Positions 2,683-17,551 are shown, counted from the stretch's first letter. The stretch: DNA of 18,466 nucleotides from Promethearchaeota archaeon (GCA_048938295.1 JBHLMI010000040.1:1-18466), one strand, 5' to 3'. Notes: a model not told the origin generated them from the sequence alone. Numbers and translations: made by a program.

Positions 2683-4338
2683 CTATTCTTCAAGCAACTT
2701 AACGTCGTCACCGGTTAATCCATACAACTTGTTGACCATGTCATTGATCTCGTGATCTAATCCCTTTTGAAGGGATATTGGGTTCTGGGCAGCTAGTTTA
2801 GCGAGGCCTGCAAGTTTTTCTTCCTGGTGTGGGGTCGGGGTTACTATGGGGATTTGTTCGAGATAGGTGGCATTGTAGCGGATGTACCCACTGCGGAGAT
2901 GCGTGGCGACGAATAGCAGGGAGAAAAAGGCATTGATAAGACGAGAGTTGAGTAAGCCTAGCAGGAAACGGGGATTGTAGGAGGTGCGAGTGTGAGTGAT
3001 GTAGTAGACGCGGCCGAGAGCGTGTCCAGTTTCGTCGAGGGCGACGCGGAGGCGTTTAGCCATGCCAGCGATAACGAGTTTGGGTTCTTTGAAGTCTTGC
3101 CATTGATCCTGTGAGGACATGGTTGGGGTGAAAGTAAGGTATTTTTTACACCGAAGCTTGTACCGTTGGACATCACCGGCGTTGAGAAAGGGGAGCGTTT
3201 TAGCTTGTGAAGCTTTGCTAAGCTTATCATATGCGCTGACTGAGAGTAGGTGTTTGGTGAATCCAGTCTTGGCGATACCGCATCGGATGGTGGTTGCTTG
3301 ACCTAGTGGAATGGTGTTATGAAGGAGTTTTCGGAGAATTGAGAACTTTTCTTCTGTTAAAGAAGGGGCTAGAATCGTGTTAGGTAGGGTATTATAGTAA
3401 TGTTGGGGAACTGAGCGGGCAGCCATGTTGGTTTTGGAGATGTCGTTTGGCTGACTTGGGGGTCGGGGAAGTTGGACTCTATTTTGATGCACTTCATCCG
3501 GAATTCGGGGTTTTCGGATAACAATGAGATGGGGGTAGGCTGCAGCGTCTTCGAAGGCATTGAGGTGGGATAAATCTACCATTTGCTCAATCACGTAATT
3601 CTTAACGAGGGTCTTTCGAAGGACGCTTCCATAATCTGCAGCAAGGACTTTGTTACTGATGACATAGCCTAATCGTCCACCTGGTCGCAGGAGGTCTAGA
3701 CCAAGTTCGATGAAAGGGATGAGAATATCAAATTGCTGGTGAACCGTGCGGTAACGGTGACGAATGTAGGTTTTGAGTTCAGGTTCTATGGATTTGATGC
3801 TGAGGAAAGGGGGATTACCAATGATTGCATCGAAGCCTCCTTCCCGCATAACCCAGGGATAGACACGGTGCCAATCAACTGGAAACTTTTTGGGAAGAGC
3901 GTCTCCAAAAACGTCTTGTGCATGTTGATCGGTTTGGATAAGACTATTTCCCAACAGAATACGTTGGGAGAAATCTGCAGGCACTCCTAGAAGCTTGTTG
4001 CTCACTTGTTCGAGGTGTCGTTGACATTGCGCGAGTGCTTTGGGGTCCACATCAATGCCGTGGATACTATCCACGATGCTACGAAGGAATAAATGCTGTT
4101 TATCCATTGGATAAGATTTGACCTTTTCTGCCAGGAATCGTAGAACGCCAGTAAGAAACGCACCGTCGCCACAAGCTGGATCAAGGACAGTGAATTCTCC
4201 AAGTAGCCGTACAGGATCTTCACTCAATGCTGGGCTGAGTGTATGGCGGATGAGATAATCGACTATCCAGTCAGGGGTGAAGAATTGACCCAGCCGCTTA
4301 CGTTGAATTCTTATCCTCTTCCGTCCCTTTGGTGTCAT
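2683..4338 (-). CDS. N6-adenine/N4-cytosine DNA methyltransferase (gamma class, TaqI/Eco57I-like) with C-terminal target-recognition domain
   Basis: 551 aa. Motif X GQFFTPDWIV, motif I (SAM binding) VLDPACGDGAFL, HGIDVD, motif IV IIGNPPF, and a TaqI_C-like tail (FLLGLLNSRLINAFF...RYNATYLEQIPI). GGGAGG SD-like sequence upstream. Confidence 0.9.
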   Translation of the reverse strand: MTPKGRKRIRIQRKRLGQFFTPDWIVDYLIRHTLSPALSEDPVRLLGEFTVLDPACGDGAFLTGVLRFLAEKVKSYPMDKQHLFLRSIVDSIHGIDVDPKALAQCQRHLEQVSNKLLGVPADFSQRILLGNSLIQTDQHAQDVFGDALPKKFPVDWHRVYPWVMREGGFDAIIGNPPFLSIKSIEPELKTYIRHRYRTVHQQFDILIPFIELGLDLLRPGGRLGYVISNKVLAADYGSVLRKTLVKNYVIEQMVDLSHLNAFEDAAAYPHLIVIRKPRIPDEVHQNRVQLPRPPSQPNDISKTNMAARSVPQHYYNTLPNTILAPSLTEEKFSILRKLLHNTIPLGQATTIRCGIAKTGFTKHLLSVSAYDKLSKASQAKTLPFLNAGDVQRYKLRCKKYLTFTPTMSSQDQWQDFKEPKLVIAGMAKRLRVALDETGHALGRVYYITHTRTSYNPRFLLGLLNSRLINAFFSLLFVATHLRSGYIRYNATYLEQIPIVTPTPHQEEKLAGLAKLAAQNPISLQKGLDHEINDMVNKLYGLTGDDVKLLEE

Positions 4339-4409
4339 TGACCCAGTTAGCCTCCCACCGTCTTGTGTCGTAGTTTATGACATCCGCTATCACATCAACA
4401 GGACTTCTA

Positions 4410-5930
4410 CTACTTAGTTGTTCTCTTCTTCGAGGATTTTGAGGTGGATCTCGTTGATTGGCGTGTTCTGGATTTAGCATTATTGATGATTTGTTCAGCT
4501 CTTTCTGGTGAGATAGAAAGAGCCTGAGCAAGTGACTCAGGGTCAGCACGAGCGACCAGTTGGGGAGTTTCGTACCCCTCATCGCGAAGTGTTTTAGCTT
4601 GCTTACTAGTGACTCCGGTGGTATTCATCAGATGGTTAATTTCGGTCTCGATTTGTTGTTCGATGCTACGAAGTGAAGTATCCACTTCTAAATCGCGGAG
4701 GGCGCGACTCACTTGGCGGCTATCCACACTCACATCGATGTCTTCGACGAGCCGTTCGTTCCATATCACTTCTCGAGCATTCGTAAGTGGAAAGATGCTG
4801 ATTAGCACCAATGAAGCCGCGATGGGATAGACTAGCAAAGAAAAGTGAGTGACGGATGAGGACATGGTAATCCACCAAATCACGGCTACAAGACAGCCCA
4901 CCATTAACCAGCCAAATGCCGCATGGCGTCCCTTCATTCGAACCGAACCGATTTCTGCCCAAACGAGCCAAGCCCCTACTCCAATGATTAACGCGGCTAC
5001 AAAGATTGTTAGGAGGGATAAGATGATTGAAACAGAATCACGTATGATAGGATCAAAATGAGCGCCACCAAAGATGCATAATAATCCCAGGAGAAGAGTA
5101 CCGATATTGAAGACGATTTTCCGCCCAAACTTGAATGGTACTAAGGCGAACACAAACACCGCTCCACTCAAACCTATTAGAATAAGTTCGGCGGGGAGCA
5201 GTCCGCTTGCAATTAGAAATAGTCCATTAAAGACGTGTCGATAGTTAGGAGGTGTCGCCCACACGTATAAGCCGAATGCAGCCAGATAGATGACCCACCA
5301 GACAGCATAGGGTCGGATAAATCCAGGAACCATGTAGGTTTGCAACTCACCTTTCCAAGGCTGAACAAAAAATGCAATAAGTAAACCGAAAAGGATCAGG
5401 CCTGCCGTGACGGCTGGTACAAAATTTGTGGTACCAAAGATAGTCCAGAAAAAGAGAAGAATAGCTGAGATGAACAGGCCGATTGCTGTGGTGATAGCTA
5501 CAACCCGTTCACGATTAACACTGGAGACTAACCGATTGAGAAAGATGGTGAACATCACCAGTGCGCAGCCAAACAGGAAAAGGAGAAGGGTGAGGAGGAG
5601 TTGACCGAATAGGGTGGACCAGACATCGGGTGGAAGAATCCATTGGGCGATTCCGATTACAAGAATCATTGCCTGAAAAACTATAAGGAGAAGAGTTCTC
5701 CCTGGCAGTTTGTCAGCGATAAACCCACCGATGATGAGACCGAGGAATAATCCGAGAATCGCTGGAAAGAGAGGAGAAGGATTAGTTTGAAGAACTGGAC
5801 GCTTAAACAAGAGAAAGGCTATGACCCATGTGAAGGGTAGGGTAAGTATTGCCGCCGTTGCCCAGTTTCTATCGATTTTCATCGAATTAGTCTCCACAGA
5901 TTCCACATAAGTTGGTCTGAACATTAGCAA
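4410..5930 (-). CDS. 12-TM MFS-fold membrane protein fused to C-terminal helix-hairpin-helix domain and basic tail
   Basis: 506 aa; the true start could be TTG 5930, ATG 5924 or ATG 5882. About 12 hydrophobic segments with MFS motif-A-like loops GGFIADKLPGR and PFKFGRK. C-terminal TGVTSKQAKTLRDEGYETPQLVARADPESLAQALSISPERAEQIINNA matches the RadA-N/HHH_5-type pattern, followed by an S/K/R-rich tail. Confidence 0.75.
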   Translation of the reverse strand: MLMFRPTYVESVETNSMKIDRNWATAAILTLPFTWVIAFLLFKRPVLQTNPSPLFPAILGLFLGLIIGGFIADKLPGRTLLLIVFQAMILVIGIAQWILPPDVWSTLFGQLLLTLLLFLFGCALVMFTIFLNRLVSSVNRERVVAITTAIGLFISAILLFFWTIFGTTNFVPAVTAGLILFGLLIAFFVQPWKGELQTYMVPGFIRPYAVWWVIYLAAFGLYVWATPPNYRHVFNGLFLIASGLLPAELILIGLSGAVFVFALVPFKFGRKIVFNIGTLLLGLLCIFGGAHFDPIIRDSVSIILSLLTIFVAALIIGVGAWLVWAEIGSVRMKGRHAAFGWLMVGCLVAVIWWITMSSSVTHFSLLVYPIAASLVLISIFPLTNAREVIWNERLVEDIDVSVDSRQVSRALRDLEVDTSLRSIEQQIETEINHLMNTTGVTSKQAKTLRDEGYETPQLVARADPESLAQALSISPERAEQIINNAKSRTRQSTRSTSKSSKKRTTK

Positions 5931-6027
5931 GGAGGGATTATAAGGGTTTCAATGGAGAAGCGATTTTAACAACACAAAGGTTAATCAACGCGGGCTTTTA
6001 GTATTGGTCAAACCTTGGTGACATCAT

Positions 6028-7296
6028 TTGCCGGTTAGAGAGATTATTGTTCTACGAAAAGGCGGTATGCCCTTGTTCAATTTTGCACCCGATGGGGCTC
6101 CGAAGCTTGATGCCCTCGTCGCCGGGTTTCTCTCAGCCCAAGCAGGATTTGCGGAAGAAATCGGTGAAGGGCAGATAAGGGTTGTCACCTTTGCTAAAAA
6201 TAAATTTGTTTACGAGAGTCATGCAGACCTGCTTTTCATTATTGCCATTGGTGAAGCCGACGATGAGAACATTTACCGTTTAATTATCAAGGAAATAGCC
6301 CAAGCTTTCGAAAAACAATACAGCGATGTTTTGCTACAATCGGTAATTTCGTCCCACCTCTTTGTCGGGTTTCGTGAATACGTCATGGAGATCTTAAAAA
6401 AATATGATAAGATTCCTAAAATCCAGCAACGATACCCAACAGCAATTCTTCCTCCTGAAAATCTCGATAAGATAGAGGAACTGCTCAACATCATTGAGGG
6501 ACTGCGTGGCATTCTACGTGCCGCACTTCTCACACAGGATGGATTCGTAATTGTGTCAAAGTTATTGCAGTATGAGCTTGAAGTAGGTATCAAGCAAATC
6601 CATCAATCCCGTAAAATTGAGCTGCCAAGTTATTTTGCTGTGTCTCAGACTACTTTGGAAGAAGGTACAAAGCTCTTTATTCATCACGTCAAACCAGTTT
6701 TGGTTTTGTTATTGATTATCCGTGAGGATTTGAAAGTCGGTCGATGCGCAGAAATGATTTCACCGTTGGTTTATGGACTTAGCAACATTGATTATTCGAG
6801 CATGGTAAAAATTCAACCGAAAACGTTAGTTACAGAAACCTTCTCGGAGTTTGATGTCTTCACATCCAATCCTATGATGGAAAGCACACTTTTTGCTGAA
6901 AGCACAGGACAAGCCCGAGAATTTGACAATTTATTTGGTAAAGCAGGCGGGGATGTACTCCAAGCCATTGACGGAATATCCACAGTAGAAGAAATCCGCA
7001 CACGAACCGGTGTCTATGGACGTCAGTTATCTGAAATTCTCAGCTATCTCTCTTCTCGTGGATACATCCGACGGATTCAATTTTATCCAAAACTTACTGC
7101 CAGCGATCGGAGGTTCCTCGCTTATCTGGAAACCGTTGGACTCCCACGAGATGAATACAAAATCTTAGAGGATGCTAAAACCTACTGCGACGGTAATAAC
7201 ACTACTAATGATATTGCCCAACGTATTGGAGTGGATGAAGTAAAGCTTATCACTGTGTTGCGAAAACTGGGGGGGAACATTGAATGGTTGACCTAA
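6028..7296 (+). CDS. Multidomain longin + roadblock-like + tandem winged-helix protein (C-terminus NPRL2-like)
   Basis: 422 aa with TTG start and GGTGA SD at 6017-6021. aa 1-~125 follow the longin pattern (IIVLRKGGMPLF...LVAGFLSAQAGFAEEIGEGQIRVVTF...LLFIIAI...IAQAFEKQY). aa ~145-255 are roadblock/profilin-like (GILRAALLTQDGFVIVS). aa ~272-422 carry two IDG/CDG-type winged-helix repeats. Confidence 0.7.
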   Translation: MPVREIIVLRKGGMPLFNFAPDGAPKLDALVAGFLSAQAGFAEEIGEGQIRVVTFAKNKFVYESHADLLFIIAIGEADDENIYRLIIKEIAQAFEKQYSDVLLQSVISSHLFVGFREYVMEILKKYDKIPKIQQRYPTAILPPENLDKIEELLNIIEGLRGILRAALLTQDGFVIVSKLLQYELEVGIKQIHQSRKIELPSYFAVSQTTLEEGTKLFIHHVKPVLVLLLIIREDLKVGRCAEMISPLVYGLSNIDYSSMVKIQPKTLVTETFSEFDVFTSNPMMESTLFAESTGQAREFDNLFGKAGGDVLQAIDGISTVEEIRTRTGVYGRQLSEILSYLSSRGYIRRIQFYPKLTASDRRFLAYLETVGLPRDEYKILEDAKTYCDGNNTTNDIAQRIGVDEVKLITVLRKLGGNIEWLT

Positions 7297-7395
7297 ACCA
7301 ATGCTTTAATAACGCAAAATTCTAACCTCGAATCAAGAACCAAAGATTCAGATTCACAATATTAACGGAATGTGAACGCTCAGGCGGATACTGTA

Positions 7396-8172
7396 ATGGG
7401 TAAAATCGTCACCGTACACAGTTTCAGAGGCGGTACCGGTAAAAGTAACCTAACAGCCAACCTTGCAACCTATGCGGCAATGAAAGGTCGAAGCGTTGGT
7501 GTCATGGATACTGATATTCAAAGCCCCGGATTACACGTCCTCTTTGGTCTGGGTGGAGAACGATTCAAATATACCCTGAATGATTATCTTCGAAAGAAAT
7601 GCACCATCGAAAAAGCCGCCATTGATCATACCAAAGCCATGAAATTACAATCTGGGAAGCTGCATGTCATCCCAGCAAGCCTCAACGCCGATGATATATC
7701 CACTATTATTCGCGAAGGGTATGAGGTAGCCGACCTTCGTCAAGGCTTTAAGCAAATTATGCAAGCCAAGCAGTTGGATTATCTCTTCATTGACACTCAC
7801 CCGGGTATGGATCAAGAAACCCTCTTGTCCATTGCAACGACAGACTTGTTGTTTGTTATCATGCGGCTTGACCAACAGGACTTTCTGGGCACCGCGATTA
7901 CCCTAGCCCTGGCGAAAAAGTTTGGGGTGCCGTCCACTTATATCGTGTGCAATAAAGTTCCTGGCATTTATGATTTTGATAAAGTGAAAAAAGACATCGA
8001 GCAAGAGTATGGCTTTGAAGTGGCCTCAGTCGTCCCACTTTTTACCCGGTTAATTGAGTTGGGAAGCCGGCAAATCCTGGTCCAGGTGAGTCCAAGTCAC
8101 CTATTTGCCCAGAACATCAATGAGCTTTTTAAACGATGTGAAGCGACGCTCAATAACTCGGTGAAACGCTAA
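7396..8172 (+). CDS. MinD/ParA-family (SIMIBI) ATPase
   Basis: ATG at 7396 gives MGKIVTVHSFRGGTGKSN; the ORF track starts at GTG 7372. Deviant Walker A RGGTGKS, switch I DTDIQSPGLHVLFG, Walker B FIDTHPG, and CNKV. Confidence 0.9.
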   Translation: MGKIVTVHSFRGGTGKSNLTANLATYAAMKGRSVGVMDTDIQSPGLHVLFGLGGERFKYTLNDYLRKKCTIEKAAIDHTKAMKLQSGKLHVIPASLNADDISTIIREGYEVADLRQGFKQIMQAKQLDYLFIDTHPGMDQETLLSIATTDLLFVIMRLDQQDFLGTAITLALAKKFGVPSTYIVCNKVPGIYDFDKVKKDIEQEYGFEVASVVPLFTRLIELGSRQILVQVSPSHLFAQNINELFKRCEATLNNSVKR

Positions 8173-8206
8173 AAGAGAAAAGAGGGGGACGCTGCAGAAA
8201 GCGTCC
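8171..8206 (-). terminator. Hairpin plus U-rich tract between convergent genes (probable terminator of the minus-strand protease gene)
   Basis: Perfect 7-bp stem GGACGCT (8187-8193) / AGCGTCC (8200-8206) with a 6-nt loop. On the minus strand it is followed by CCCTCTTTTCTCTTTT. Confidence 0.6.
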
Positions 8207-8218
8207 GGATTGTGTTTT

Positions 8219-10126
8219 CTAGCGTCGATGCCGTCGATATACGACTCCAAGACTGACTGCAAGGATTGCTCCTAATGCAATTGCCTCAAATGGGAATCCT
8301 GGAATTCCTGGCGGAAGGGGAGGCAACACGATTACGGTGATTTGGTGTGAACTACTGAGCCCTGAAACGTCGAAGACTGTGACATTGAGAAGATACGTGC
8401 CTGGGATGAGATTGGAAATTGTGGCATTCGTTACGGGAGCAATGATGGTTGTGAACAGTGAACCATTCAGATAGATGTCAGTTGAACTGTAACCTGAGCC
8501 AGTTTCAATCACTGACCAGGTTATATCGAAGGGGGGAAAGACTGCATCACCTGTGTTGGGAGCCGTAATGGTCACAGAAGGATTTGTAATGTCGATATTT
8601 ACCTGATAATGAGCTGCTTCTGAGCCGATATTTCCAACACTGTCTTTACTGACGACATGTAGATACCAAGTGCCATCTATTAGAGGAATTGTGGGGAGTG
8701 TCCCGTTTATGGTAGTATATGTTCCGGTTGTAGCGGTTGGAATGGTTGTTGGATTTTGATCTAGGATATAATAGTATCCAGCGATGCTATTCACGTCAAT
8801 GGGGATGCTCCAGTTGAATTGGGGATAGGGGTTGTTTGACCACTGGGAGGGATCAGGATGTGTGGTCGATGATATCGTAGGAGGAAGTGCAGTAACGTCA
8901 TGATGTGTGGTTAGGAATGGGTCTCCTATGATGTTCATTCCATAATACCATTCAATATAATAACTACCAGCTGTCGCTCCACCATTTATCCACCAGTTTT
9001 TGAAACCATCACCAAGTGTCTGATTTTGTCCCAATGGAGAATAGAAGTATTGACAGTCCATCATTCCACCAGTTTTTGATGAGCCAATTGCACCAAGACC
9101 GTAGCTGCCACTAAATACGTAAGTGACAGCGATATTGTCAGAAATGGTCCATTCAGCACCATGACAGCAAAACAGATTGTAGAAGTTGAATGCAGGAGGA
9201 ACGGCTCTAACTTGGGCAGAGGTTATACTCACTGTTGGAGTATGGAATTGATGAGAGGTGGCAGTACTGTGTGCGCAAAGATGAGCCCATTTGTAATCTA
9301 GTGCAATCCTGTTTAGCCAATCTGCAGCCGTTGTTGAGGCGTTAGCATTTACTAGTGTTCGAGTGGAGAATGCGTTACCTACATCACCGTCCCAAAGGGT
9401 GCTCCAATAGTTTGACCAATCATCATCGACGTAGACTAGGGCACGATGTTGTCGCAGAAGGCTGCCAATTCGGTAACTGTGAGCACGAGCCAAATACGTG
9501 TTGATATGATTCGCGGTTCCGGTGCCCCAAGTTAAGCAAGTAGGATCGATTCGACCAACATAGATCTCTGGATCTGTATCAGCACCGGCTGATGCATTAT
9601 GCACATCGTAAGCACCAGTTGGTGTTGTAGTATCATACCAATTACCATCGAGATCCATAAGATACAGGTCACAGATGAATCTTTCAGAAGAAAATTGTCC
9701 CGATGCTGGATGGTAAAATTCTGCATAGGGGAGCCGACCAATTAGAACTGCCCCTTTGAAATTAGAATGGGTATTGTACCACGAAGTTAGATTGCTTTTA
9801 AGTTCTTGAACGGTGTTGAGTGTTTGAGTATAGAGAATCGTGTTATATCCTGTATTATTGAGGTCCGCTCGATATTGCGTTACTGCAGAAGATACACTGG
9901 AGTATAGGGTGTTCTGCACAATAATCGCCACGGTTTCTGATGGTGGTGGAATCGGCAGTATTGGGTCAGATAATGCTGAACTCTGGAGCTCCATTGGAGA
10001 AATGATGAGTGAGTTACTGGGCTGAATCTGTTCTGATGAGGCAGAAGGTATAATATTAGCCAGAAAGAGAATAATAACAAATATTCCGAAGATAAGAGCT
10101 GCTTTTCTCATGATTTCTGCTTCCAT
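8219..10126 (-). CDS. Secreted, surface-anchored gingipain-like cysteine peptidase (family C25-like) with Ig-like domains and PGF-type C-terminal anchor
   Basis: 635 aa; start is 10126 or the Met of MRKAAL. Signal peptide; C25-like motifs GAVLIGRLPY, CDLYLMDLDG, PEIYVGRIDP, putative catalytic His (CAHS) and Cys (NLFCCHG), and IIGDPFL. Thr/Pro-rich beta-rich domains follow (ITNPSVTITAP, GTYLLNVTVFD). Ends IPGFPF-TM helix-YRRHRR. Confidence 0.8.
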   Translation of the reverse strand: MEAEIMRKAALIFGIFVIILFLANIIPSASSEQIQPSNSLIISPMELQSSALSDPILPIPPPSETVAIIVQNTLYSSVSSAVTQYRADLNNTGYNTILYTQTLNTVQELKSNLTSWYNTHSNFKGAVLIGRLPYAEFYHPASGQFSSERFICDLYLMDLDGNWYDTTTPTGAYDVHNASAGADTDPEIYVGRIDPTCLTWGTGTANHINTYLARAHSYRIGSLLRQHRALVYVDDDWSNYWSTLWDGDVGNAFSTRTLVNANASTTAADWLNRIALDYKWAHLCAHSTATSHQFHTPTVSITSAQVRAVPPAFNFYNLFCCHGAEWTISDNIAVTYVFSGSYGLGAIGSSKTGGMMDCQYFYSPLGQNQTLGDGFKNWWINGGATAGSYYIEWYYGMNIIGDPFLTTHHDVTALPPTISSTTHPDPSQWSNNPYPQFNWSIPIDVNSIAGYYYILDQNPTTIPTATTGTYTTINGTLPTIPLIDGTWYLHVVSKDSVGNIGSEAAHYQVNIDITNPSVTITAPNTGDAVFPPFDITWSVIETGSGYSSTDIYLNGSLFTTIIAPVTNATISNLIPGTYLLNVTVFDVSGLSSSHQITVIVLPPLPPGIPGFPFEAIALGAILAVSLGVVYRRHRR

Positions 10127-11407: not shown

Positions 11408-12448
11408 ATGCCTTCACTTACTCCATTCCAACGTGTTATGATGCTACTTCGTGGTAAGCTCCCGGATCGTGTTCCTGTTATCCCCCAAATCACCTATACG
11501 ACCGCTCAGATAACTGGAGTGGGTCTAGTTGAAGCTCTAAATAGCCCTGAAAAGACTGCAGAAGCGCTTTTAGCTGGGCAACGTGAACTTGGATATGATG
11601 CTATCTATGTTGGATGGGAAAGTTCGTTTAATTTGTTAGCTGAGGCGATGGGATGTACGATGCGATTCCCGGAAGATTCAGTTCCACAAGTGGCGGATCA
11701 TATCATCAAGTCACCTAGCGATATCGATAAGGTGGCGATTCCAGACCCCCATCGCTCTGGGCGGTTACCGCTCCACATGGAAATGGTGAAACTTGTCAAA
11801 GATGAGGTCCAAGGTGATGTGCCTCTTTTTGCCTACACTCCGGGTCCATTCACCTTGGCTGGACAGCTTGCTGGTGTCAATGCTTTAATGGTAGCGACGA
11901 TTCTCAATCCCGAATTTATCCGCACCCTCCTCAGTCTGACCACAAAAGCTTCCATGCGGTATGCCCTGGCCAATGTTGAAGCAGGTGTTAATGTCATTGT
12001 AACAGCAGATCCTACGGCTAGCGGTAGCCTCATCAGTCCAAAGACATTTGCAACCTTTGCAGCCCCGCATCTTGCTCAAGTCGCTAAGGCAGTTACCCGG
12101 GCAGGAAGTATTGCCTCTCTGCATATTTGCGGAAAAACAACTTCGATATTAGACCAGATGGCAAGTACAGGAGTAAGAATATTGGAACTCGATCACCTTG
12201 TGGATATACGCGAGGCACAACAGCTCATCGGACAGCAGGTGATTCTAATGGGAAACTTGAATCCAACTGAACTTCTCTTGAATGGAACACCAGCTGAGGT
12301 AGAGGCCGCGGCAAAGTGGTGCATTGAAACCGTAGGTTTAGATGGACATTATATTCTCAGCAGCGGCTGTGAGGTGCCACCGTTAACCCCACTTAATAAT
12401 ATCCGGGCAATGGTAGCAGCAGCAGAAAAATATGGACGATTCAGCTAG
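11408..12448 (+). CDS. MtaA/CmuA-family (URO-D fold) methylcobalamin:thiol methyltransferase (MT2)
   Basis: 346 aa. PDRVPVIP N-terminus, AEAMG, GPFTLAGQL, DPTASGSLISP, zinc-ligand motif LHICG, C-terminal SSGCEVP, and LMGNLNP. Confidence 0.88.
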   Translation: MPSLTPFQRVMMLLRGKLPDRVPVIPQITYTTAQITGVGLVEALNSPEKTAEALLAGQRELGYDAIYVGWESSFNLLAEAMGCTMRFPEDSVPQVADHIIKSPSDIDKVAIPDPHRSGRLPLHMEMVKLVKDEVQGDVPLFAYTPGPFTLAGQLAGVNALMVATILNPEFIRTLLSLTTKASMRYALANVEAGVNVIVTADPTASGSLISPKTFATFAAPHLAQVAKAVTRAGSIASLHICGKTTSILDQMASTGVRILELDHLVDIREAQQLIGQQVILMGNLNPTELLLNGTPAEVEAAAKWCIETVGLDGHYILSSGCEVPPLTPLNNIRAMVAAAEKYGRFS

Positions 12449-13261: not shown

Positions 13262-13305
13262 CGGGCTAGTCCATGCTGCGACTGATTTGTTAGGAGTTGT
13301 TTATT

Positions 13306-14352
13306 ATGTCCTTAGACTGGGAAAAATACAAGCAGGTCCAAGAGAATGTCTTTGACCTCATTGGGCTAACGCCCTTGTTGCGCTTACCAAAGATTAGCGA
13401 GAAAGCCGGAGTCAATATCCTAGGAAAGATCGAATGGTATTCTCCCACAGGTAGTTTGAAAGACCGTATTTACTACAAGATGGTCCACGAAGCCATTGAC
13501 CGTGGTGACTTAAAACCAGGCATGGAAATCATCGAGTCGTCAACCGGAAATGCTGGTATTGCCTGTTCCTTTGTTGGTCGAATGTTGAACTACCCAGTGA
13601 CCATTATCATGCCTGAAGGGATGAGTCAAGAACGCCGAAAACTCATGGCCGCGTATGGCGCTAAGATTACCTTCACACCAGGTGGTGAATCCGATGTGGA
13701 CTTGTGTCTGAAAAAAGCGAAGCAGCTTAAGGAGCAGAATCCAGGAAAATATTGGGAACCAGCACAGTTCAGTAACCCAGATAACCCTCTCGCCCATTAT
13801 GAAATGACAGGGCAGGAAATATGGGAGCAGACCACTGGAAAAGTGGATGCATTCATCGCTAGCCAAGGTACTGGGGGAACAATTACAGGCGTGGGTCGAT
13901 TTTTGCGGGAGAAGAATCCGAAGGTGAAACTCTATGCTATTGAGCCCACAGAAGCGCCCCTACTCGCACATCGAAAATGGGGATCTCACCGCATTGAAGG
14001 TATTGGTGATGGGTTTGTGCCAGTAAATCTCGATTTGAGCATGCTAGACGGAATCATTACTACCACTTCTGACGAAGCTTTGGAAATGGCCCAATGGCTC
14101 AGTCGTGAAGAAGGACTCTTTTGTGGAATCTCATCAGGGTGCAATGTTGCTGCAGCTCTAAAGCTAGCCAAGCGACACCCTGAACTCAAGACGATTGTGA
14201 CCATGATTAACGACAGTGGACAACGCTACTTCAGCACTCCGTTGTGCGGTGAACCAAAAGTTCTGGATATCCCAGACAGGGAACATCCTATGGATACACG
14301 AACCAAAACCGAACTTGACAAATACCAGCATAGTTGGGAAATCATTGAGTAA
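13306..14352 (+). CDS. PLP-dependent cysteine synthase family enzyme (fold type II, CysK/CysM-like)
   Basis: Likely start is ATG 13306 with AGGAG SD. IGLTPLLRL, PLP lysine motif PTGSLKDRI, substrate loop ESSTGNAG, QFSNPDN, phosphate loop GTGGTITG, IEGIG, EGLFCGISSG, and DSGQRYFST. Confidence 0.9.
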   Translation: MSLDWEKYKQVQENVFDLIGLTPLLRLPKISEKAGVNILGKIEWYSPTGSLKDRIYYKMVHEAIDRGDLKPGMEIIESSTGNAGIACSFVGRMLNYPVTIIMPEGMSQERRKLMAAYGAKITFTPGGESDVDLCLKKAKQLKEQNPGKYWEPAQFSNPDNPLAHYEMTGQEIWEQTTGKVDAFIASQGTGGTITGVGRFLREKNPKVKLYAIEPTEAPLLAHRKWGSHRIEGIGDGFVPVNLDLSMLDGIITTTSDEALEMAQWLSREEGLFCGISSGCNVAAALKLAKRHPELKTIVTMINDSGQRYFSTPLCGEPKVLDIPDREHPMDTRTKTELDKYQHSWEIIE

Positions 14353-14386
14353 CACAATAGTACCAGTGAGATAAGGTGCATACTGA

Positions 14387-15037
14387 ATGGGAAATGAAAT
14401 TGTTGATGAAATTCGTGAAGAGATGATTAATTGTCAGACTGAACGAGTTCTCGACCTTGTTCCGAAGGCCATTGACCAAGGAATTGATGCAACTATTATT
14501 ATCAACAAAGGACTTACGGCAGGTATTCGAGTGTTAGGTGATCGATTTGAAAAAGGCGAAGCCTACTTGCCAGAACTCGCAGTGGCAGCAGAAACGATGA
14601 AACAGGCCCTCGAATTCCTTGAACCTCATCTGGTCAAGTCTCAAGACGAGGACGCCCTGGGAACCATCGTGATAGGAACGGTGCAAGGGGATATCCATGA
14701 GATTGGAAAATCAATTGTGGCAACTATGCTCACGGTGGCTGGATTTACCGTTTATGATTTAGGTGTCGAGGTGACACCGGCTCAGTTCGTCTCCAAAGCC
14801 AGGGAAGTGAACGCCGATATTATTGCGATGTCTGCGTTATTGACCACGACCATGGACCGGATGCAAGAAACCATCGAGCTATTAAAAATGGAGAAGCTTG
14901 ATCAACGGATAAAAATCATGGTGGGTGGAGCACCAGTCAGCCAAGATTTCGCAGACAAGATCGGTGCTGATGGTTACGGTGTTGACTTTAATCAGGCAGT
15001 GAAAATCGCGAAACAGCTGACAGGCAAGACAGAATGA
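14387..15037 (+). CDS. Methyltransferase cognate corrinoid protein (MtbC/MttC/MtgC-like)
   Basis: 216 aa. N-terminal cap (GDRFEKGEAYLPEL), cobalamin-binding DxHxxG motif GDIHEIGKSIV, DLGVEV, MSALLTTTM, and MVGGAPV. Confidence 0.95.
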   Translation: MGNEIVDEIREEMINCQTERVLDLVPKAIDQGIDATIIINKGLTAGIRVLGDRFEKGEAYLPELAVAAETMKQALEFLEPHLVKSQDEDALGTIVIGTVQGDIHEIGKSIVATMLTVAGFTVYDLGVEVTPAQFVSKAREVNADIIAMSALLTTTMDRMQETIELLKMEKLDQRIKIMVGGAPVSQDFADKIGADGYGVDFNQAVKIAKQLTGKTE

Positions 15038-16536
15038 TGAAACAGCATCGGAGACAAGAGATATTGACACAACGACCCCAATTCAAACTGCTCTCGGAGC
15101 AGGAAGTTCATCGAATTCACTCAGAAAGCCTCCATTTGCTTGAGGAAGTTGGGATGAAAATCCAAAGTCATGACGCATTAGAGCTCCTTAAAGAAGCCGG
15201 AGCCTCAGTAAATTTTAACAAGGAACATGCCTATTTCCCCTCTTCACTCGTCGAAGAGCAACTAAAGCATGCACCCTCCTCAATCCAGTTATTTGACCGT
15301 GAAGGGCATCCAGCTGTTCTCCTTGAAGGAGATCAAGTCCAATTCAATCCAGGCTCGGCTGCAACGCATATTTTGGACCACGAAACCGGTGCACGACGTC
15401 ATCCAACCGTCAAAGATGTTATCGACTTCGCCCAGGTAACTGAGGCGTTACCTTACATCGATGCTCAAAGCACTGCCCTCATCCCCGCAGATGTACCTCC
15501 ACTCCTCGCGGATCGTTATCGGTTATACCTACTCCTTCAGCACTCAACAAAACCCATCATAACCGGCACTTTTGCGCTTGATGCTTTTAACGATATGAAG
15601 CAAATGCTTGAAGTTATAGCAGGGGGACCCAAGAAGCTCCGAGACAAACCACGAGCCATCTTTGATACGTGTCCATCTGCCCCATTACAATGGAGTGAAC
15701 TGACAGTTCATGATCTCCTATTTGGTGCATCCGCCGGAATTCCAATTGAACTTATTTCAATGCCCCAACTTGGAGCAACCGGTCCGATTACTATCGCTGG
15801 GTCGTTGGTATTGCATAATGCTGAGTCGCTGAGCGGTGTTGTACTCGCCCAACTTGCAAATAAGGGTGCACCGGTAATTTATGGCGGTTCTCCCACAGCT
15901 GTCGATATGCAGTATGGAACAGCGCGGCTTGGAGCCATTGAAAGCATGATGCTTACATGCGCCTATGCACAGATAGCAAAGCATTACAATCTCCCAACCC
16001 ACGGGTACATGGGCCTTTCAGACGCTAAAATTGGTGCCGATGCCCAAGTAGGTTATGAGGCAGCAACTGGATTTCTCCTTGCAGCGATGTCAGGAATTAA
16101 TAACATCGCGGGTGCTGGAATGCTTATTTTTGAAAGCACCCAAAGTTATGAAAAACTAGTCATCGACGACATGCTTGCGGGGATGGTGAAACGGTTCATG
16201 ACCGGCGTTGAAGTGAATGATGGCACCCTTGCCTTGGATGAGCTCCGAGAAGTTGGGACCAAAGGTGGCGATTTCCTCCGCTTGCGGCACACGCTAGCCT
16301 GGTTCCGGAAAGAGCACTACATGCCGGGTAAATTAGTCGACCGCCAACCGTTCGAAAGCTGGCAATCCCAAGGAGCATTGACCAGTTTAGACCGGGCTCG
16401 TGAGCGTGTCCAAGAAATTCTAACCACCTACGACGTACCCACGCTAAACAACTCACAACTTCAAGATTTGAACGCGATTGCTAAAACCTTCATGAAGCGT
16501 CATAAGAGTTCCTCGCTGCCCCATGGTCCAAGCTGA
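15034..16536 (+). CDS. Trimethylamine methyltransferase (MttB) superfamily protein, non-pyrrolysine type
   Basis: 500 aa with ATGA overlap with the corrinoid gene. GATGPITIAGSLVLHNAESLSGVVLAQL, GAPVIYG, SDAK, GAGML...SYEKLVIDD, and TLALD...VG match MttB/MtgB. The residue just before SDAK (Pyl in Methanosarcina MttB) is Leu (CTT, 16015-16017), and there is no in-frame TAG. Confidence 0.93.
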   Translation: MMKQHRRQEILTQRPQFKLLSEQEVHRIHSESLHLLEEVGMKIQSHDALELLKEAGASVNFNKEHAYFPSSLVEEQLKHAPSSIQLFDREGHPAVLLEGDQVQFNPGSAATHILDHETGARRHPTVKDVIDFAQVTEALPYIDAQSTALIPADVPPLLADRYRLYLLLQHSTKPIITGTFALDAFNDMKQMLEVIAGGPKKLRDKPRAIFDTCPSAPLQWSELTVHDLLFGASAGIPIELISMPQLGATGPITIAGSLVLHNAESLSGVVLAQLANKGAPVIYGGSPTAVDMQYGTARLGAIESMMLTCAYAQIAKHYNLPTHGYMGLSDAKIGADAQVGYEAATGFLLAAMSGINNIAGAGMLIFESTQSYEKLVIDDMLAGMVKRFMTGVEVNDGTLALDELREVGTKGGDFLRLRHTLAWFRKEHYMPGKLVDRQPFESWQSQGALTSLDRARERVQEILTTYDVPTLNNSQLQDLNAIAKTFMKRHKSSSLPHGPS

Positions 16537-16672: not shown

Positions 16673-17551
16673 TTGATACACAATGTTCTGTTACTCACCA
16701 GAAACGGCATCAAACTCTTCCACCGTTCATACTGGGCGATTGAAATCGACCAGCCAGTCGTTTCTGAATACATCCAATCCCTCCGCCAGCTCGAAAGAGA
16801 TACCGGTGAAGATCTCTCCGTGCCCATCTTTTTGGATGGCATGAAATTCATCCATAAATATGTCGACTCTGACCTTATCCTCGTCCTGGTCGCTGATCGT
16901 CAAGATAGGGACGAAATACTTCAAGAAAAAATCGACAACGCAGTCCGGACAATGAAGCAAAAATTCGCCAAACAGATTTGGGATTTCAAAAGTAACAGGA
17001 ATTCACAAGTATTCCAAGAACTTGGACCAATCATCGATCAAGCTATTGTGTCTACACTCAAGATTGTCCTTCTTGGCGAGGGGGGTGTGGGCAAAACCAC
17101 AATCTTAAAAATGCTCATGAGTCAACGCGCTGACCTTAATCATATTGCCACGATGGCTGTGTACGTAGAAGAGATGCAAACAGCAAAGCTTGGTCCGTAT
17201 GAGCTGGCCGTTTGGGACTTTCCTGGTCAGGAACTGTTGGTTCCAAAATGGAAAGATTATCTCCGTGGGACAGATGTTGTGTTGATGGTCACCGATTCGA
17301 CATTGAAGAACGTGATGTCAACTCGGAAATTAATTCCGATAATTCAGAAATGGACTGACGGTGCTTTGGTTTGGGCAATTGCAAACAAGCAGGACCTAAA
17401 AGATTCCCTCCTTCCTGATACTGTTGCACGACTTTTAGGGCTTCGCACCATCGGTTTAGTAGCAATTGATCCACGCAACAAGGAGTTACTATTTAAGACG
17501 CTGATGGGAGCTGCGGCGGAAGTAGCCTTTCCTGTAGAAGTTGCAAGCTAA
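16673..17551 (+). CDS. Longin domain fused to Arf/Sar-like small GTPase
   Basis: 292 aa with TTG start, GGGAGG SD at 16658-16663 and TATA-like TTTTAAA at 16604-16610. aa 1-~125 are longin-like (IHNVLLLTRNGIKLFHRSY...LILVLVAD). G1 GEGGVGKT, G2 Thr (IATMAV), G3 WDFPGQ, G4 ANKQD, G5 VAI. Confidence 0.85.
   Translation: MIHNVLLLTRNGIKLFHRSYWAIEIDQPVVSEYIQSLRQLERDTGEDLSVPIFLDGMKFIHKYVDSDLILVLVADRQDRDEILQEKIDNAVRTMKQKFAKQIWDFKSNRNSQVFQELGPIIDQAIVSTLKIVLLGEGGVGKTTILKMLMSQRADLNHIATMAVYVEEMQTAKLGPYELAVWDFPGQELLVPKWKDYLRGTDVVLMVTDSTLKNVMSTRKLIPIIQKWTDGALVWAIANKQDLKDSLLPDTVARLLGLRTIGLVAIDPRNKELLFKTLMGAAAEVAFPVEVAS

Follow-up and report, generated by a model that had tools for sequence, protein, structure and literature searches.

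Longin and roadblock domains are usually taken as a hallmark of small-GTPase regulation and, in Asgard archaea, as pointing to mTOR-type signalling and trafficking of a eukaryote-like kind. A stretch of 18,466 nucleotides from Promethearchaeota archaeon GCA_048938295.1 (hereafter the window), part of an Asgard metagenome-assembled genome of 2.5 Mb and 91.6% completeness, raises the question of whether such domains may also serve a nucleotide switch of another class. Three adjacent genes pose it: P0001 is a membrane protein of the major facilitator superfamily (MFS) type with a helix-hairpin-helix (HhH) domain, P0002 joins a longin domain, a roadblock domain and two winged-helix (WH) domains, and P0003 is an ATPase of the MinD/ParA class. 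The longin-roadblock protein is here tied to a MinD/ParA-type ATPase, which suggests an ATPase partner instead of a small GTPase.

The module formed by these genes is real, conserved, and found in Hermod- and Thorarchaeota. We give a probability of roughly 45% to the reading that it is an ATP-driven dimerisation-switch module, in which P0003 would be the switch, P0002 its dedicated partner and the MFS-HhH protein the membrane component. Should P0002 and P0003 indeed work together, the partner range of longin/roadblock platforms would be wider than assumed, and some Asgard eukaryotic signature proteins may serve prokaryote-style ATPase switches. An unstudied subfamily of MinD-type ATPases with a variant arginine would, in addition, gain a testable partner rule in the form of a winged-helix protein. 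Expression and in vitro assays are feasible for all three proteins, so that the question can be put to a direct test.

Linkage and distribution of the three genes

The same three-gene order was found in 13 genomes of the genus and in four genomes of a sister genus. Adjacency within the genus carries no weight, because the whole 18-kb region is syntenic there. In the sister genus the order is kept at 52/72/42% identity, and in Thorarchaeota the module is kept at about 31/53/24% identity with all flanking genes different; it is this recurrence, in a sister genus and amid different flanks, which places the adjacency beyond chance. Four of the five Thor-family loci present the MFS-HhH gene and then, divergently, genes for a short longin-WH paralogue, the longin-roadblock-WH protein and the ATPase, whereas the fifth has other genes inserted. 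In those four loci the genes for the longin-roadblock-WH protein and the ATPase abut or overlap, the gaps running from about -11 to +6 bp. In one Thor-family genome the two are separated by an ADP-ribosylglycohydrolase gene (Pfam 3.3e-72; locus L021, 9586-10539). A GNAT gene which follows the Thor ATPase was considered as a fourth component and set aside as not belonging to the core, because it was not found in this genome. A third lineage (GCA_053940065.1) retains the longin-roadblock-WH and ATPase pair with an 11-bp gap; the ATPase gene is followed there, after 6 bp, by the gene for a protein of 216 residues (locus L127, 8031-8681) with a CxxC zinc-ribbon-like N-terminus and two transmembrane helices.

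Phyletic patterns were scored in 61 Asgard genomes, comprising 18 of the home family (Hermodarchaeota), five of the Thor family and 38 from 18 other families. All three genes follow the same pattern: they occur in 17-18 of the 18 home-family genomes, in 5/5 of the Thor family and in 0/38 of the others, and the sole home-family genome lacking the module is only 72% complete. Each gene is single-copy. In a tree of 90 subfamily ATPases with an outgroup, the ATPases encoded beside longin-WH proteins form one clade (SH-aLRT 99; 15 of 16 rows) to which a Helarchaeota-type group is sister; the pairing of the ATPase with a longin-WH protein thus has a single origin. A first-pass annotation of this DNA had proposed that the three genes act as one unit, and in related genomes they proved to be linked and to share a phyletic pattern, rather than being scattered with discordant ones.

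The genes lie where that annotation had placed them, at maximal open reading frames (ORFs) of 4410-5930 on the minus strand and 6028-7296 and 7372-8172 on the plus strand, with some start codons revised. The P0001 gene (4410-5882, minus strand) encodes an MFS fold with a cytoplasmic tail and gives 490 residues from a conserved ATG at 5882, the maximal ORF of 506 residues reaching to a TTG at 5930. Because the conserved start is ATG 5882, the divergent gap between P0001 and P0002 measures about 145 bp (5883-6027); the divergence described earlier stands, the length of 97 bp (5931-6027) does not. The P0002 gene (6028-7296, plus strand) encodes 422 residues from a TTG at 6028 which the intergenic alignment shows in 13/13 genomes of the genus. 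Residues 1-13 form the first strand of the longin fold in the structural model, so that several database entries of the family which begin at Met14, and lack this strand, are truncated. The P0003 gene (7396-8172, plus strand; maximal ORF from GTG 7372) most likely starts at ATG 7396, judging by homologues which begin MGKI, and would then encode 258 residues; the previously reported 99-bp gap between P0002 and P0003 agrees with this start.

An arginine-variant ATPase and its winged-helix companions

The Pfam families ParA, CbiA and AAA_31 all exceed their own cut-offs on P0003. Its Walker A motif, FRGGTGKS (7423-7446, plus strand), has Arg19 at the position of the signature lysine and retains the P-loop lysine, Lys24. 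This arginine is invariant in 22/22 aligned subfamily members, which depart from KGGxGK[ST] at the first lysine. The other motifs of the class are present and invariant, namely switch I (D46-T47-D48), D141-T-H-P-G and N194 of a degenerate NKxD, and Asgard and bacterial members have in common HS[FY]RGGTGKSN, DTDxxSPGxH, DTHPG, RxDxQD and N194. The subfamily is distinct and highly conserved, its alignment having 52 invariant columns, and P0003 shares approximately 50% identity with proteins of cyanobacteria and other bacteria. Its members run to thousands, spread over Cyanobacteria, Chloroflexota and archaea. With the single P0003 sequence as query, a search of genome contigs found close relatives only. 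The protein has an isoelectric point (pI) of 8.8, and its C-terminus is not conserved and has no membrane-targeting extension. A literature search for the motif RGGTGKS found no paper.

Two narrower identities were rejected. The cell-division MinD models TIGR01969 and TIGR01968 gave 63.9 bits against 201.75 and 56.4 against 212.9, respectively, and no min genes (MinC/MinE) occur within the window. The KGGVGR-variant or ConB2 identity fails on the retained Lys24 and on model NF047398, which gave 65.7 bits against a cut-off of 90. P0003 shares its ATPase class, its Walker A, switch I and switch II motifs and the adjacency of a partner gene with MinD-MinE, ParA-ParB/ParG, SegA-SegB and FleN(FlhG)-FleQ. 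Unlike these deviant-Walker-A systems, the signature lysine is an arginine in every member, and MinC/MinE, ParB and centromere-like repeats are absent here.

What accompanies this ATPase elsewhere bears on how P0002 might act. The subfamily profile collected 80 metagenome loci, 69 of them with a callable ATPase gene. Small proteins of about 100-130 residues, with weak matches to IclR/MarR-type winged helices, recur as immediate neighbours of the ATPase gene, on either side of it. This small winged helix-turn-helix (wHTH) domain was detected by profile search in 21 of the 69 loci, at times inside large proteins, as well as in four of six further loci found by protein, including Helarchaeota, two of whose loci have it in proteins of 199 and 200 residues. 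In a cyanobacterium it forms the C-terminus of a ParA-like neighbour. Two bacterial loci (L027 and L046; 5761-7728) encode a GAF protein, the Arg-variant ATPase and then a patatin lipase with a cyclic-nucleotide (cNMP)-binding domain, and the N-terminus of the L027 lipase is the small-wHTH partner domain (E 1.9e-16). Other neighbours of the ATPase are sensor-type proteins with GAF, cNMP-binding or TPR domains.

The small-wHTH profile aligned with WH1 of P0002 at an hhalign probability of 83% (P 9.5e-6, 37 columns), and it meets the same WH1 segment, weakly, in every P0002-family member which gave a match. Profiles of the P0002 domains matched only P0002-family proteins strongly, the small neighbours reaching E 0.003 or weaker with WH1, and the profile of the whole P0002 family had no match among the six first-checked neighbours of bacterial and Helarchaeota ATPases. 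These comparisons offer a lead, from sequence comparison, that the usual companion of the ATPase subfamily is a winged-helix module, whose place is taken in Thor- and Hermodarchaeota by a WH pair fused to a longin domain, with a roadblock domain or lacking one. Because the same subfamily elsewhere sits beside small winged-helix proteins, the winged-helix module of P0002 is the likely coupling element, a role which the first-pass annotation had given to the longin/roadblock part. The genome also has a second MinD-type gene, with the canonical lysine (HSFKGGTGKSN; within 72238-76014 of contig C32), which is 29% identical to P0003 and lies 4 bp from the gene for a protein of 159 residues matching the small-wHTH partner profile (E 5e-4).

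A combination of ParA-class ATPase and winged helix invites comparison with a 2026 preprint (10.64898/2026.10.19.760177) on mainly archaeal ParA-wHTH systems, read as immunity, some of which have a profilin/longin-like domain fused to the wHTH; the same preprint reports ParA displacing MglA beside MglB in bacteria. On this analogy, P0002 and P0003 would act against mobile elements, the wHTH protein and the ParA-type ATPase intercepting and coating invading DNA. Apart from the class of NTPase, the wHTH and the possible longin/profilin-like domain, the likeness extends to a PG after DxD. The KGGVGR-variant model named above is the best NCBIfam match of P0003, albeit below its cut-off, PADLOC gave a weak candidate match (PDC-M28B 3.6e-10), and a DNA methyltransferase gene is adjacent. 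Yet ConB2 (KGGxGR) has its arginine at the second Walker A lysine, whereas P0003 (RGGTGKS) has it at the first and keeps the second. The wHTH proteins of the preprint are, moreover, fast-evolving, while the P0002 family and the ATPase are conserved, single-copy, vertically inherited in stable synteny and linked to the MFS-HhH protein, and PADLOC gave no match on P0001 and P0002. An immune role is not indicated, and we regard it as very improbable.

The proposed partner protein, the membrane protein and a possible mechanism

The AlphaFold2 (AF2) model of P0002 has a mean predicted local distance difference test (pLDDT) score of 80.6. Residues 1-132 (6028-6423, plus strand) are modelled as a longin domain, with a five-stranded sheet and the right order of elements (strand-strand-helix-strand-strand-strand-helix-helix); superposition with VIA-align on VAMP7, Sec22b and SRX gave Z 14-15 and root-mean-square deviations (rmsd) of 2.4-2.9 A over 112-125 residues. 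Residues 135-262 (6430-6813, plus strand) follow the order helix-strand-strand-helix-strand-strand-strand-helix and superpose on the C-terminal domain of RagC, on MglB and on Asgard roadblocks with Z 12.4-13.4 and rmsd 2.3-3.0 A. It is by this predicted fold that the domain is a roadblock, the Pfam family Robl_LC7 remaining sub-threshold (18.1 bits against 23). The two winged helices (6907-7293, plus strand) were delimited by DSSP on the model as WH1, residues 294-357, and WH2, residues 358-422. Structure prediction and motifs thus bear out the domain calls made earlier for all three proteins: MFS-HhH; longin, roadblock and winged helices which may be NPRL2/3-like; and a MinD-type ATPase.

The P0002 family is small: a search of 1.8 billion representatives yielded 13 clusters at E<1e-30. 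Pfam signals across its 26 members are weak (TrmB in 24, HTH_47 in 23, Clat_adaptor_s in 16, Robl_LC7 in 13 at E<=1, HTH_NPRL3 in 12), HTH_NPRL3 reaching at best E 1.8e-4, below cut-off, and a profile of the family found only marginal roadblock and HTH matches among PDB sequences. Six residues are invariant across Hermod- and Thorarchaeota and are candidates for functional surfaces: the roadblock domain contributes E157, R164, D171 and E183, and WH2 has D360 and R362 near its beginning. WH1 is mildly basic (pI 9.3) and WH2 acidic (pI 4.9), within a protein of pI 5.4. Elsewhere in the genome, a protein of 718 residues on contig C32 (locus L128, 34-2190) resembles the P0002 longin domain over roughly its N-terminal 100 residues and has no recognisable domain in the remainder; proteins like it, some 700 residues long, occur across the genus. 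As a bridge to two-component fusions the 718-residue protein was rejected, having no kinase or receiver domains.

Foldseek searches with whole P0002 placed the NPRL chains of GATOR1 first (E 6.5e-10, full-length alignment), followed by Mon1-Ccz1, Fuzzy-Inturned and BLOC-3. With NPRL2-NPRL3 (Npr2-Npr3 in yeast) the protein has in common this top match, an N-terminal longin domain, C-terminal winged helices and the weak HTH_NPRL3 signal, and the Thor protein, like NPRL2 and NPRL3, comes as a pair of paralogues. Unlike NPRL2/3, P0002 has a full roadblock domain between longin and winged helices, and none of the 26 family members matches Pfam NPR2 or NPR3. Unlike GATOR1, the window has no DEPDC5-like gene, and the NTPase encoded next to P0002 is of the MinD/ParA type instead of a Rag GTPase. 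MglB-MglA, Ragulator-Rag and SRX-SRbeta likewise set roadblock or longin folds (Z 12-15) beside a P-loop nucleotide switch; the client would here be a dimerising ATPase of the SIMIBI class, unlike in those systems, with two winged helices fused to the platform. An NPRL2-like family has been described in Thor MAGs (Liu et al., bioRxiv 10.1101/2020.10.19.343400), where MinD is not mentioned. The module had earlier been called undescribed, which holds for the three-gene unit but not for the NPRL2-like Thor family, nor for the longin-like ParA-wHTH fusions of the preprint. The three-gene unit, the subfamily with arginine at the first lysine and the winged-helix partner rule were not found in the literature searched. 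We regard the module as largely undescribed.

P0001 was modelled with AF2 from 26 homologues (pLDDT 81.5, predicted TM-score (pTM) 0.72). All 50 of the Foldseek matches listed against the PDB are major-facilitator-type transporters (TM 0.42-0.63, about 400 columns), although no Pfam MFS or other transporter family matches by sequence. A motif-A-like G..D...GR occurs in both halves, with D57, G253, R254 and K255 invariant. By predicted fold and motif A, P0001 belongs to the major facilitator superfamily, and because both copies of motif A are retained it probably still cycles like a transporter. Beyond the last transmembrane helix, its tail runs from an acidic linker through the HhH domain to a basic end. 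The HhH domain (4473-4631, minus strand; residues 434-486 of the 506-residue ORF) scores 29.2 bits on Pfam HHH_5 against a cut-off of 27, gives weak matches to the RadA N-terminus and to Hel308, and has invariant G/L/A columns which are conserved in Thor homologues. It is itself neutral, the final 25 residues of the protein having a net charge of +9. One homologue (locus L135) is split into ORFs of 339 and 133 residues by a frameshift or an assembly error.

Type Ib partition and SegAB systems are typically laid out as a ParA/MinD-class ATPase with a small partner of DNA-binding type, and the genes resemble this layout. The module might, accordingly, position or tether DNA in the manner of ParA: an ATPase dimer would bind DNA, the WH adaptor would stimulate it, and the HhH tail would tie DNA to the membrane. 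An HhH domain above the Pfam cut-off, the +9 end of P0001 and the basic pI of P0003 would suit this scheme. It is opposed by the neutral charge of the HhH domain, by a small wHTH partner family which is mostly acidic or neutral, and by the DNA itself, where no centromere-like, operator-like or iterated repeats were seen in 4000-8600, two-copy matches being at chance level only. We consider such a role quite unlikely.

In the dimerisation-switch reading which we favour, P0003 would dimerise in an ATP-dependent manner, its invariant arginine occupying the signature position at the dimer interface. P0002 would be a dedicated and probably dimeric partner, forming a homodimer in this genome and, in Thorarchaeota, pairing with the short longin-WH paralogue as a heterodimer. 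The winged-helix module would couple it to P0003, as proposed above, with the longin-roadblock part as an added regulatory or assembly platform, and the MFS-HhH protein may, through its cytoplasmic tail, act either as membrane input (a transceptor) or as anchor or target. The folds, the motifs, the gene linkage, the common phyletic pattern and the one origin of the pairing are established; all physical contacts, the way in which signals run and the output in the cell are what we infer. SLC38A9-Ragulator-Rag and the Streptomyces conservon CvnA-D follow a similar logic, combining a sensor in the membrane, proteins of roadblock and helix-turn-helix-like type and a P-loop switch. The likeness is one of analogy only, and the class of NTPase differs.

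A complex prediction for full-length P0002 and P0003, each with its own alignment, scored 0.00 against a mark of 0.32, a result which speaks neither for nor against the reading. Several points do weigh against it. Firstly, the known partners of longin and roadblock domains are otherwise small GTPases, and the longin profile of the P0002 family matches the N-terminal 117 residues of a longin-GTPase fusion encoded in the window (E 3.6e-8). Secondly, the similarity between the small wHTH domain and WH1 is of a level expected between any two winged helices. Thirdly, the linkage comes from two or three lineages which may share the module by common descent, leaving few independent events; the third lineage has no adjacent MFS-HhH gene, and in one Thor genome another gene separates it from the rest. 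Lastly, the P0003 gene has, in this genus, a promoter-like element of its own (see below), so that co-transcription with the P0002 gene is not required.

The first of these points leads to the reading in which P0002 is a GTPase-activating protein, a guanine nucleotide exchange factor or a platform for a small GTPase encoded elsewhere, as NPRL2/3 are for Rag, the ATPase running in parallel. The best fold matches of P0002 are all regulators of small GTPases, and the longin match just given points the same way. The fusion concerned (16673-17551, plus strand; 292 residues, with an Arf/Roc/Rag-like GTPase domain at 128-260) lies 8.5 kb from the module. Asgard genomes encode many small GTPases (PMC10933270), and those of strain MK-D1 as a rule share no operon with roadblock or longin genes (Tran et al., PMC10933270). 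Genomics is a poor judge of this reading, since Asgard GTPases generally lie outside operons of such regulators. Against it, no small GTPase matching that of the window was found in 18-kb stretches from five Thor-family loci, nor was one called in the 13 kb covered of the third lineage, whereas an ATPase gene accompanies the P0002 homologue in every locus which reaches that far. We deem it improbable.

A more specific proposal would have an NPRL2/3-type longin dimer activate or gate the SIMIBI ATPase, with input from an MFS transceptor, for signalling of nutrient or membrane state. While we hold this too to be improbable, it would, if true, mean that the logic of SLC38A9-GATOR/Ragulator-Rag recurs with a different class of nucleotide switch, and that longin/roadblock platforms served P-loop switches generally before their specialisation on small GTPases.

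Promoter-like signals and neighbouring genes

Intergenic DNA was aligned across the 13 genomes of the genus, 12 of whose loci reach the promoter region of the membrane-protein gene. Upstream of the P0001 ATG at 5882, a conserved promoter-like block (5934-5951, minus strand) includes the TATA-like TTATAAT at 5937-5943. GATTATAAG is kept within this block in 11 of the 12 genomes and GGGATTATAAG in seven, one genome having AAAAG. On the other strand, the promoter-like block CAAAGGTTAATC (5975-5986, plus strand) upstream of the P0002 gene is kept in 12/13 genomes, the remaining one being short by a single base. It is followed by a Shine-Dalgarno-like GGTGAC (6017-6022, plus strand) before the TTG start, GGTGA occurring in 13/13 genomes and the sixth base being C in 11.

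A further conserved block (7297-7314, plus strand) lies just 3' of the P0002 stop and contains the TATA-like TTTAATAA at 7305-7312, exactly as reported in the first-pass annotation. AACCAATG follows the stop in all 13 genomes, in one beginning GACC, and is followed in turn by TTTAAT or TTTAAA in ten of them and by CTTTAAAG in three. The conservation of this block throughout the genus makes it plausible that the P0003 gene has its own promoter there. The sequencing runs listed for 4410-8172 are of sediment metagenome DNA, with no RNA run among them.

These signals bear on the reading of P0002 as a transcription factor which senses a ligand or partner, binds the divergent promoter and controls the MFS gene, the ATPase being accessory or separate. 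Winged helices of TrmB/MarR/HTH_47 type in 23-24 of the 26 P0002-family members would fit such a role, as would the divergent arrangement with the MFS gene, kept in Hermodarchaeota and most Thor loci, the promoter-like element of the P0003 gene in this genus and the basic WH1. The DNA between the two divergent promoter blocks nevertheless varies, in length as well as sequence, and the 13-genome alignment shows no conserved palindrome in it; WH2 and P0002 as a whole are acidic; and the pairing of P0002 with the ATPase is the tighter one, surviving where the MFS gene is absent. We judge a transcription factor of this kind to be unlikely.

The genomic context is stable and chromosomal, with TFB and methyltransferase genes nearby. 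An N6-adenine DNA methyltransferase of Eco57I/TaqI type (2683-4338, minus strand; 551 residues, without a nuclease domain) adjoins the MFS-HhH gene in 6/6 genus genomes fetched and was not seen in the Thor loci. Further downstream, genes for a pyridoxal-phosphate enzyme, a corrinoid-binding protein and an MttB-family methyltransferase stand in a row (13297-16536, plus strand), near a gene for an MtaA/CmuA-type methyltransferase (11408-12448, plus strand), together a methyl-transfer set unrelated to the module.

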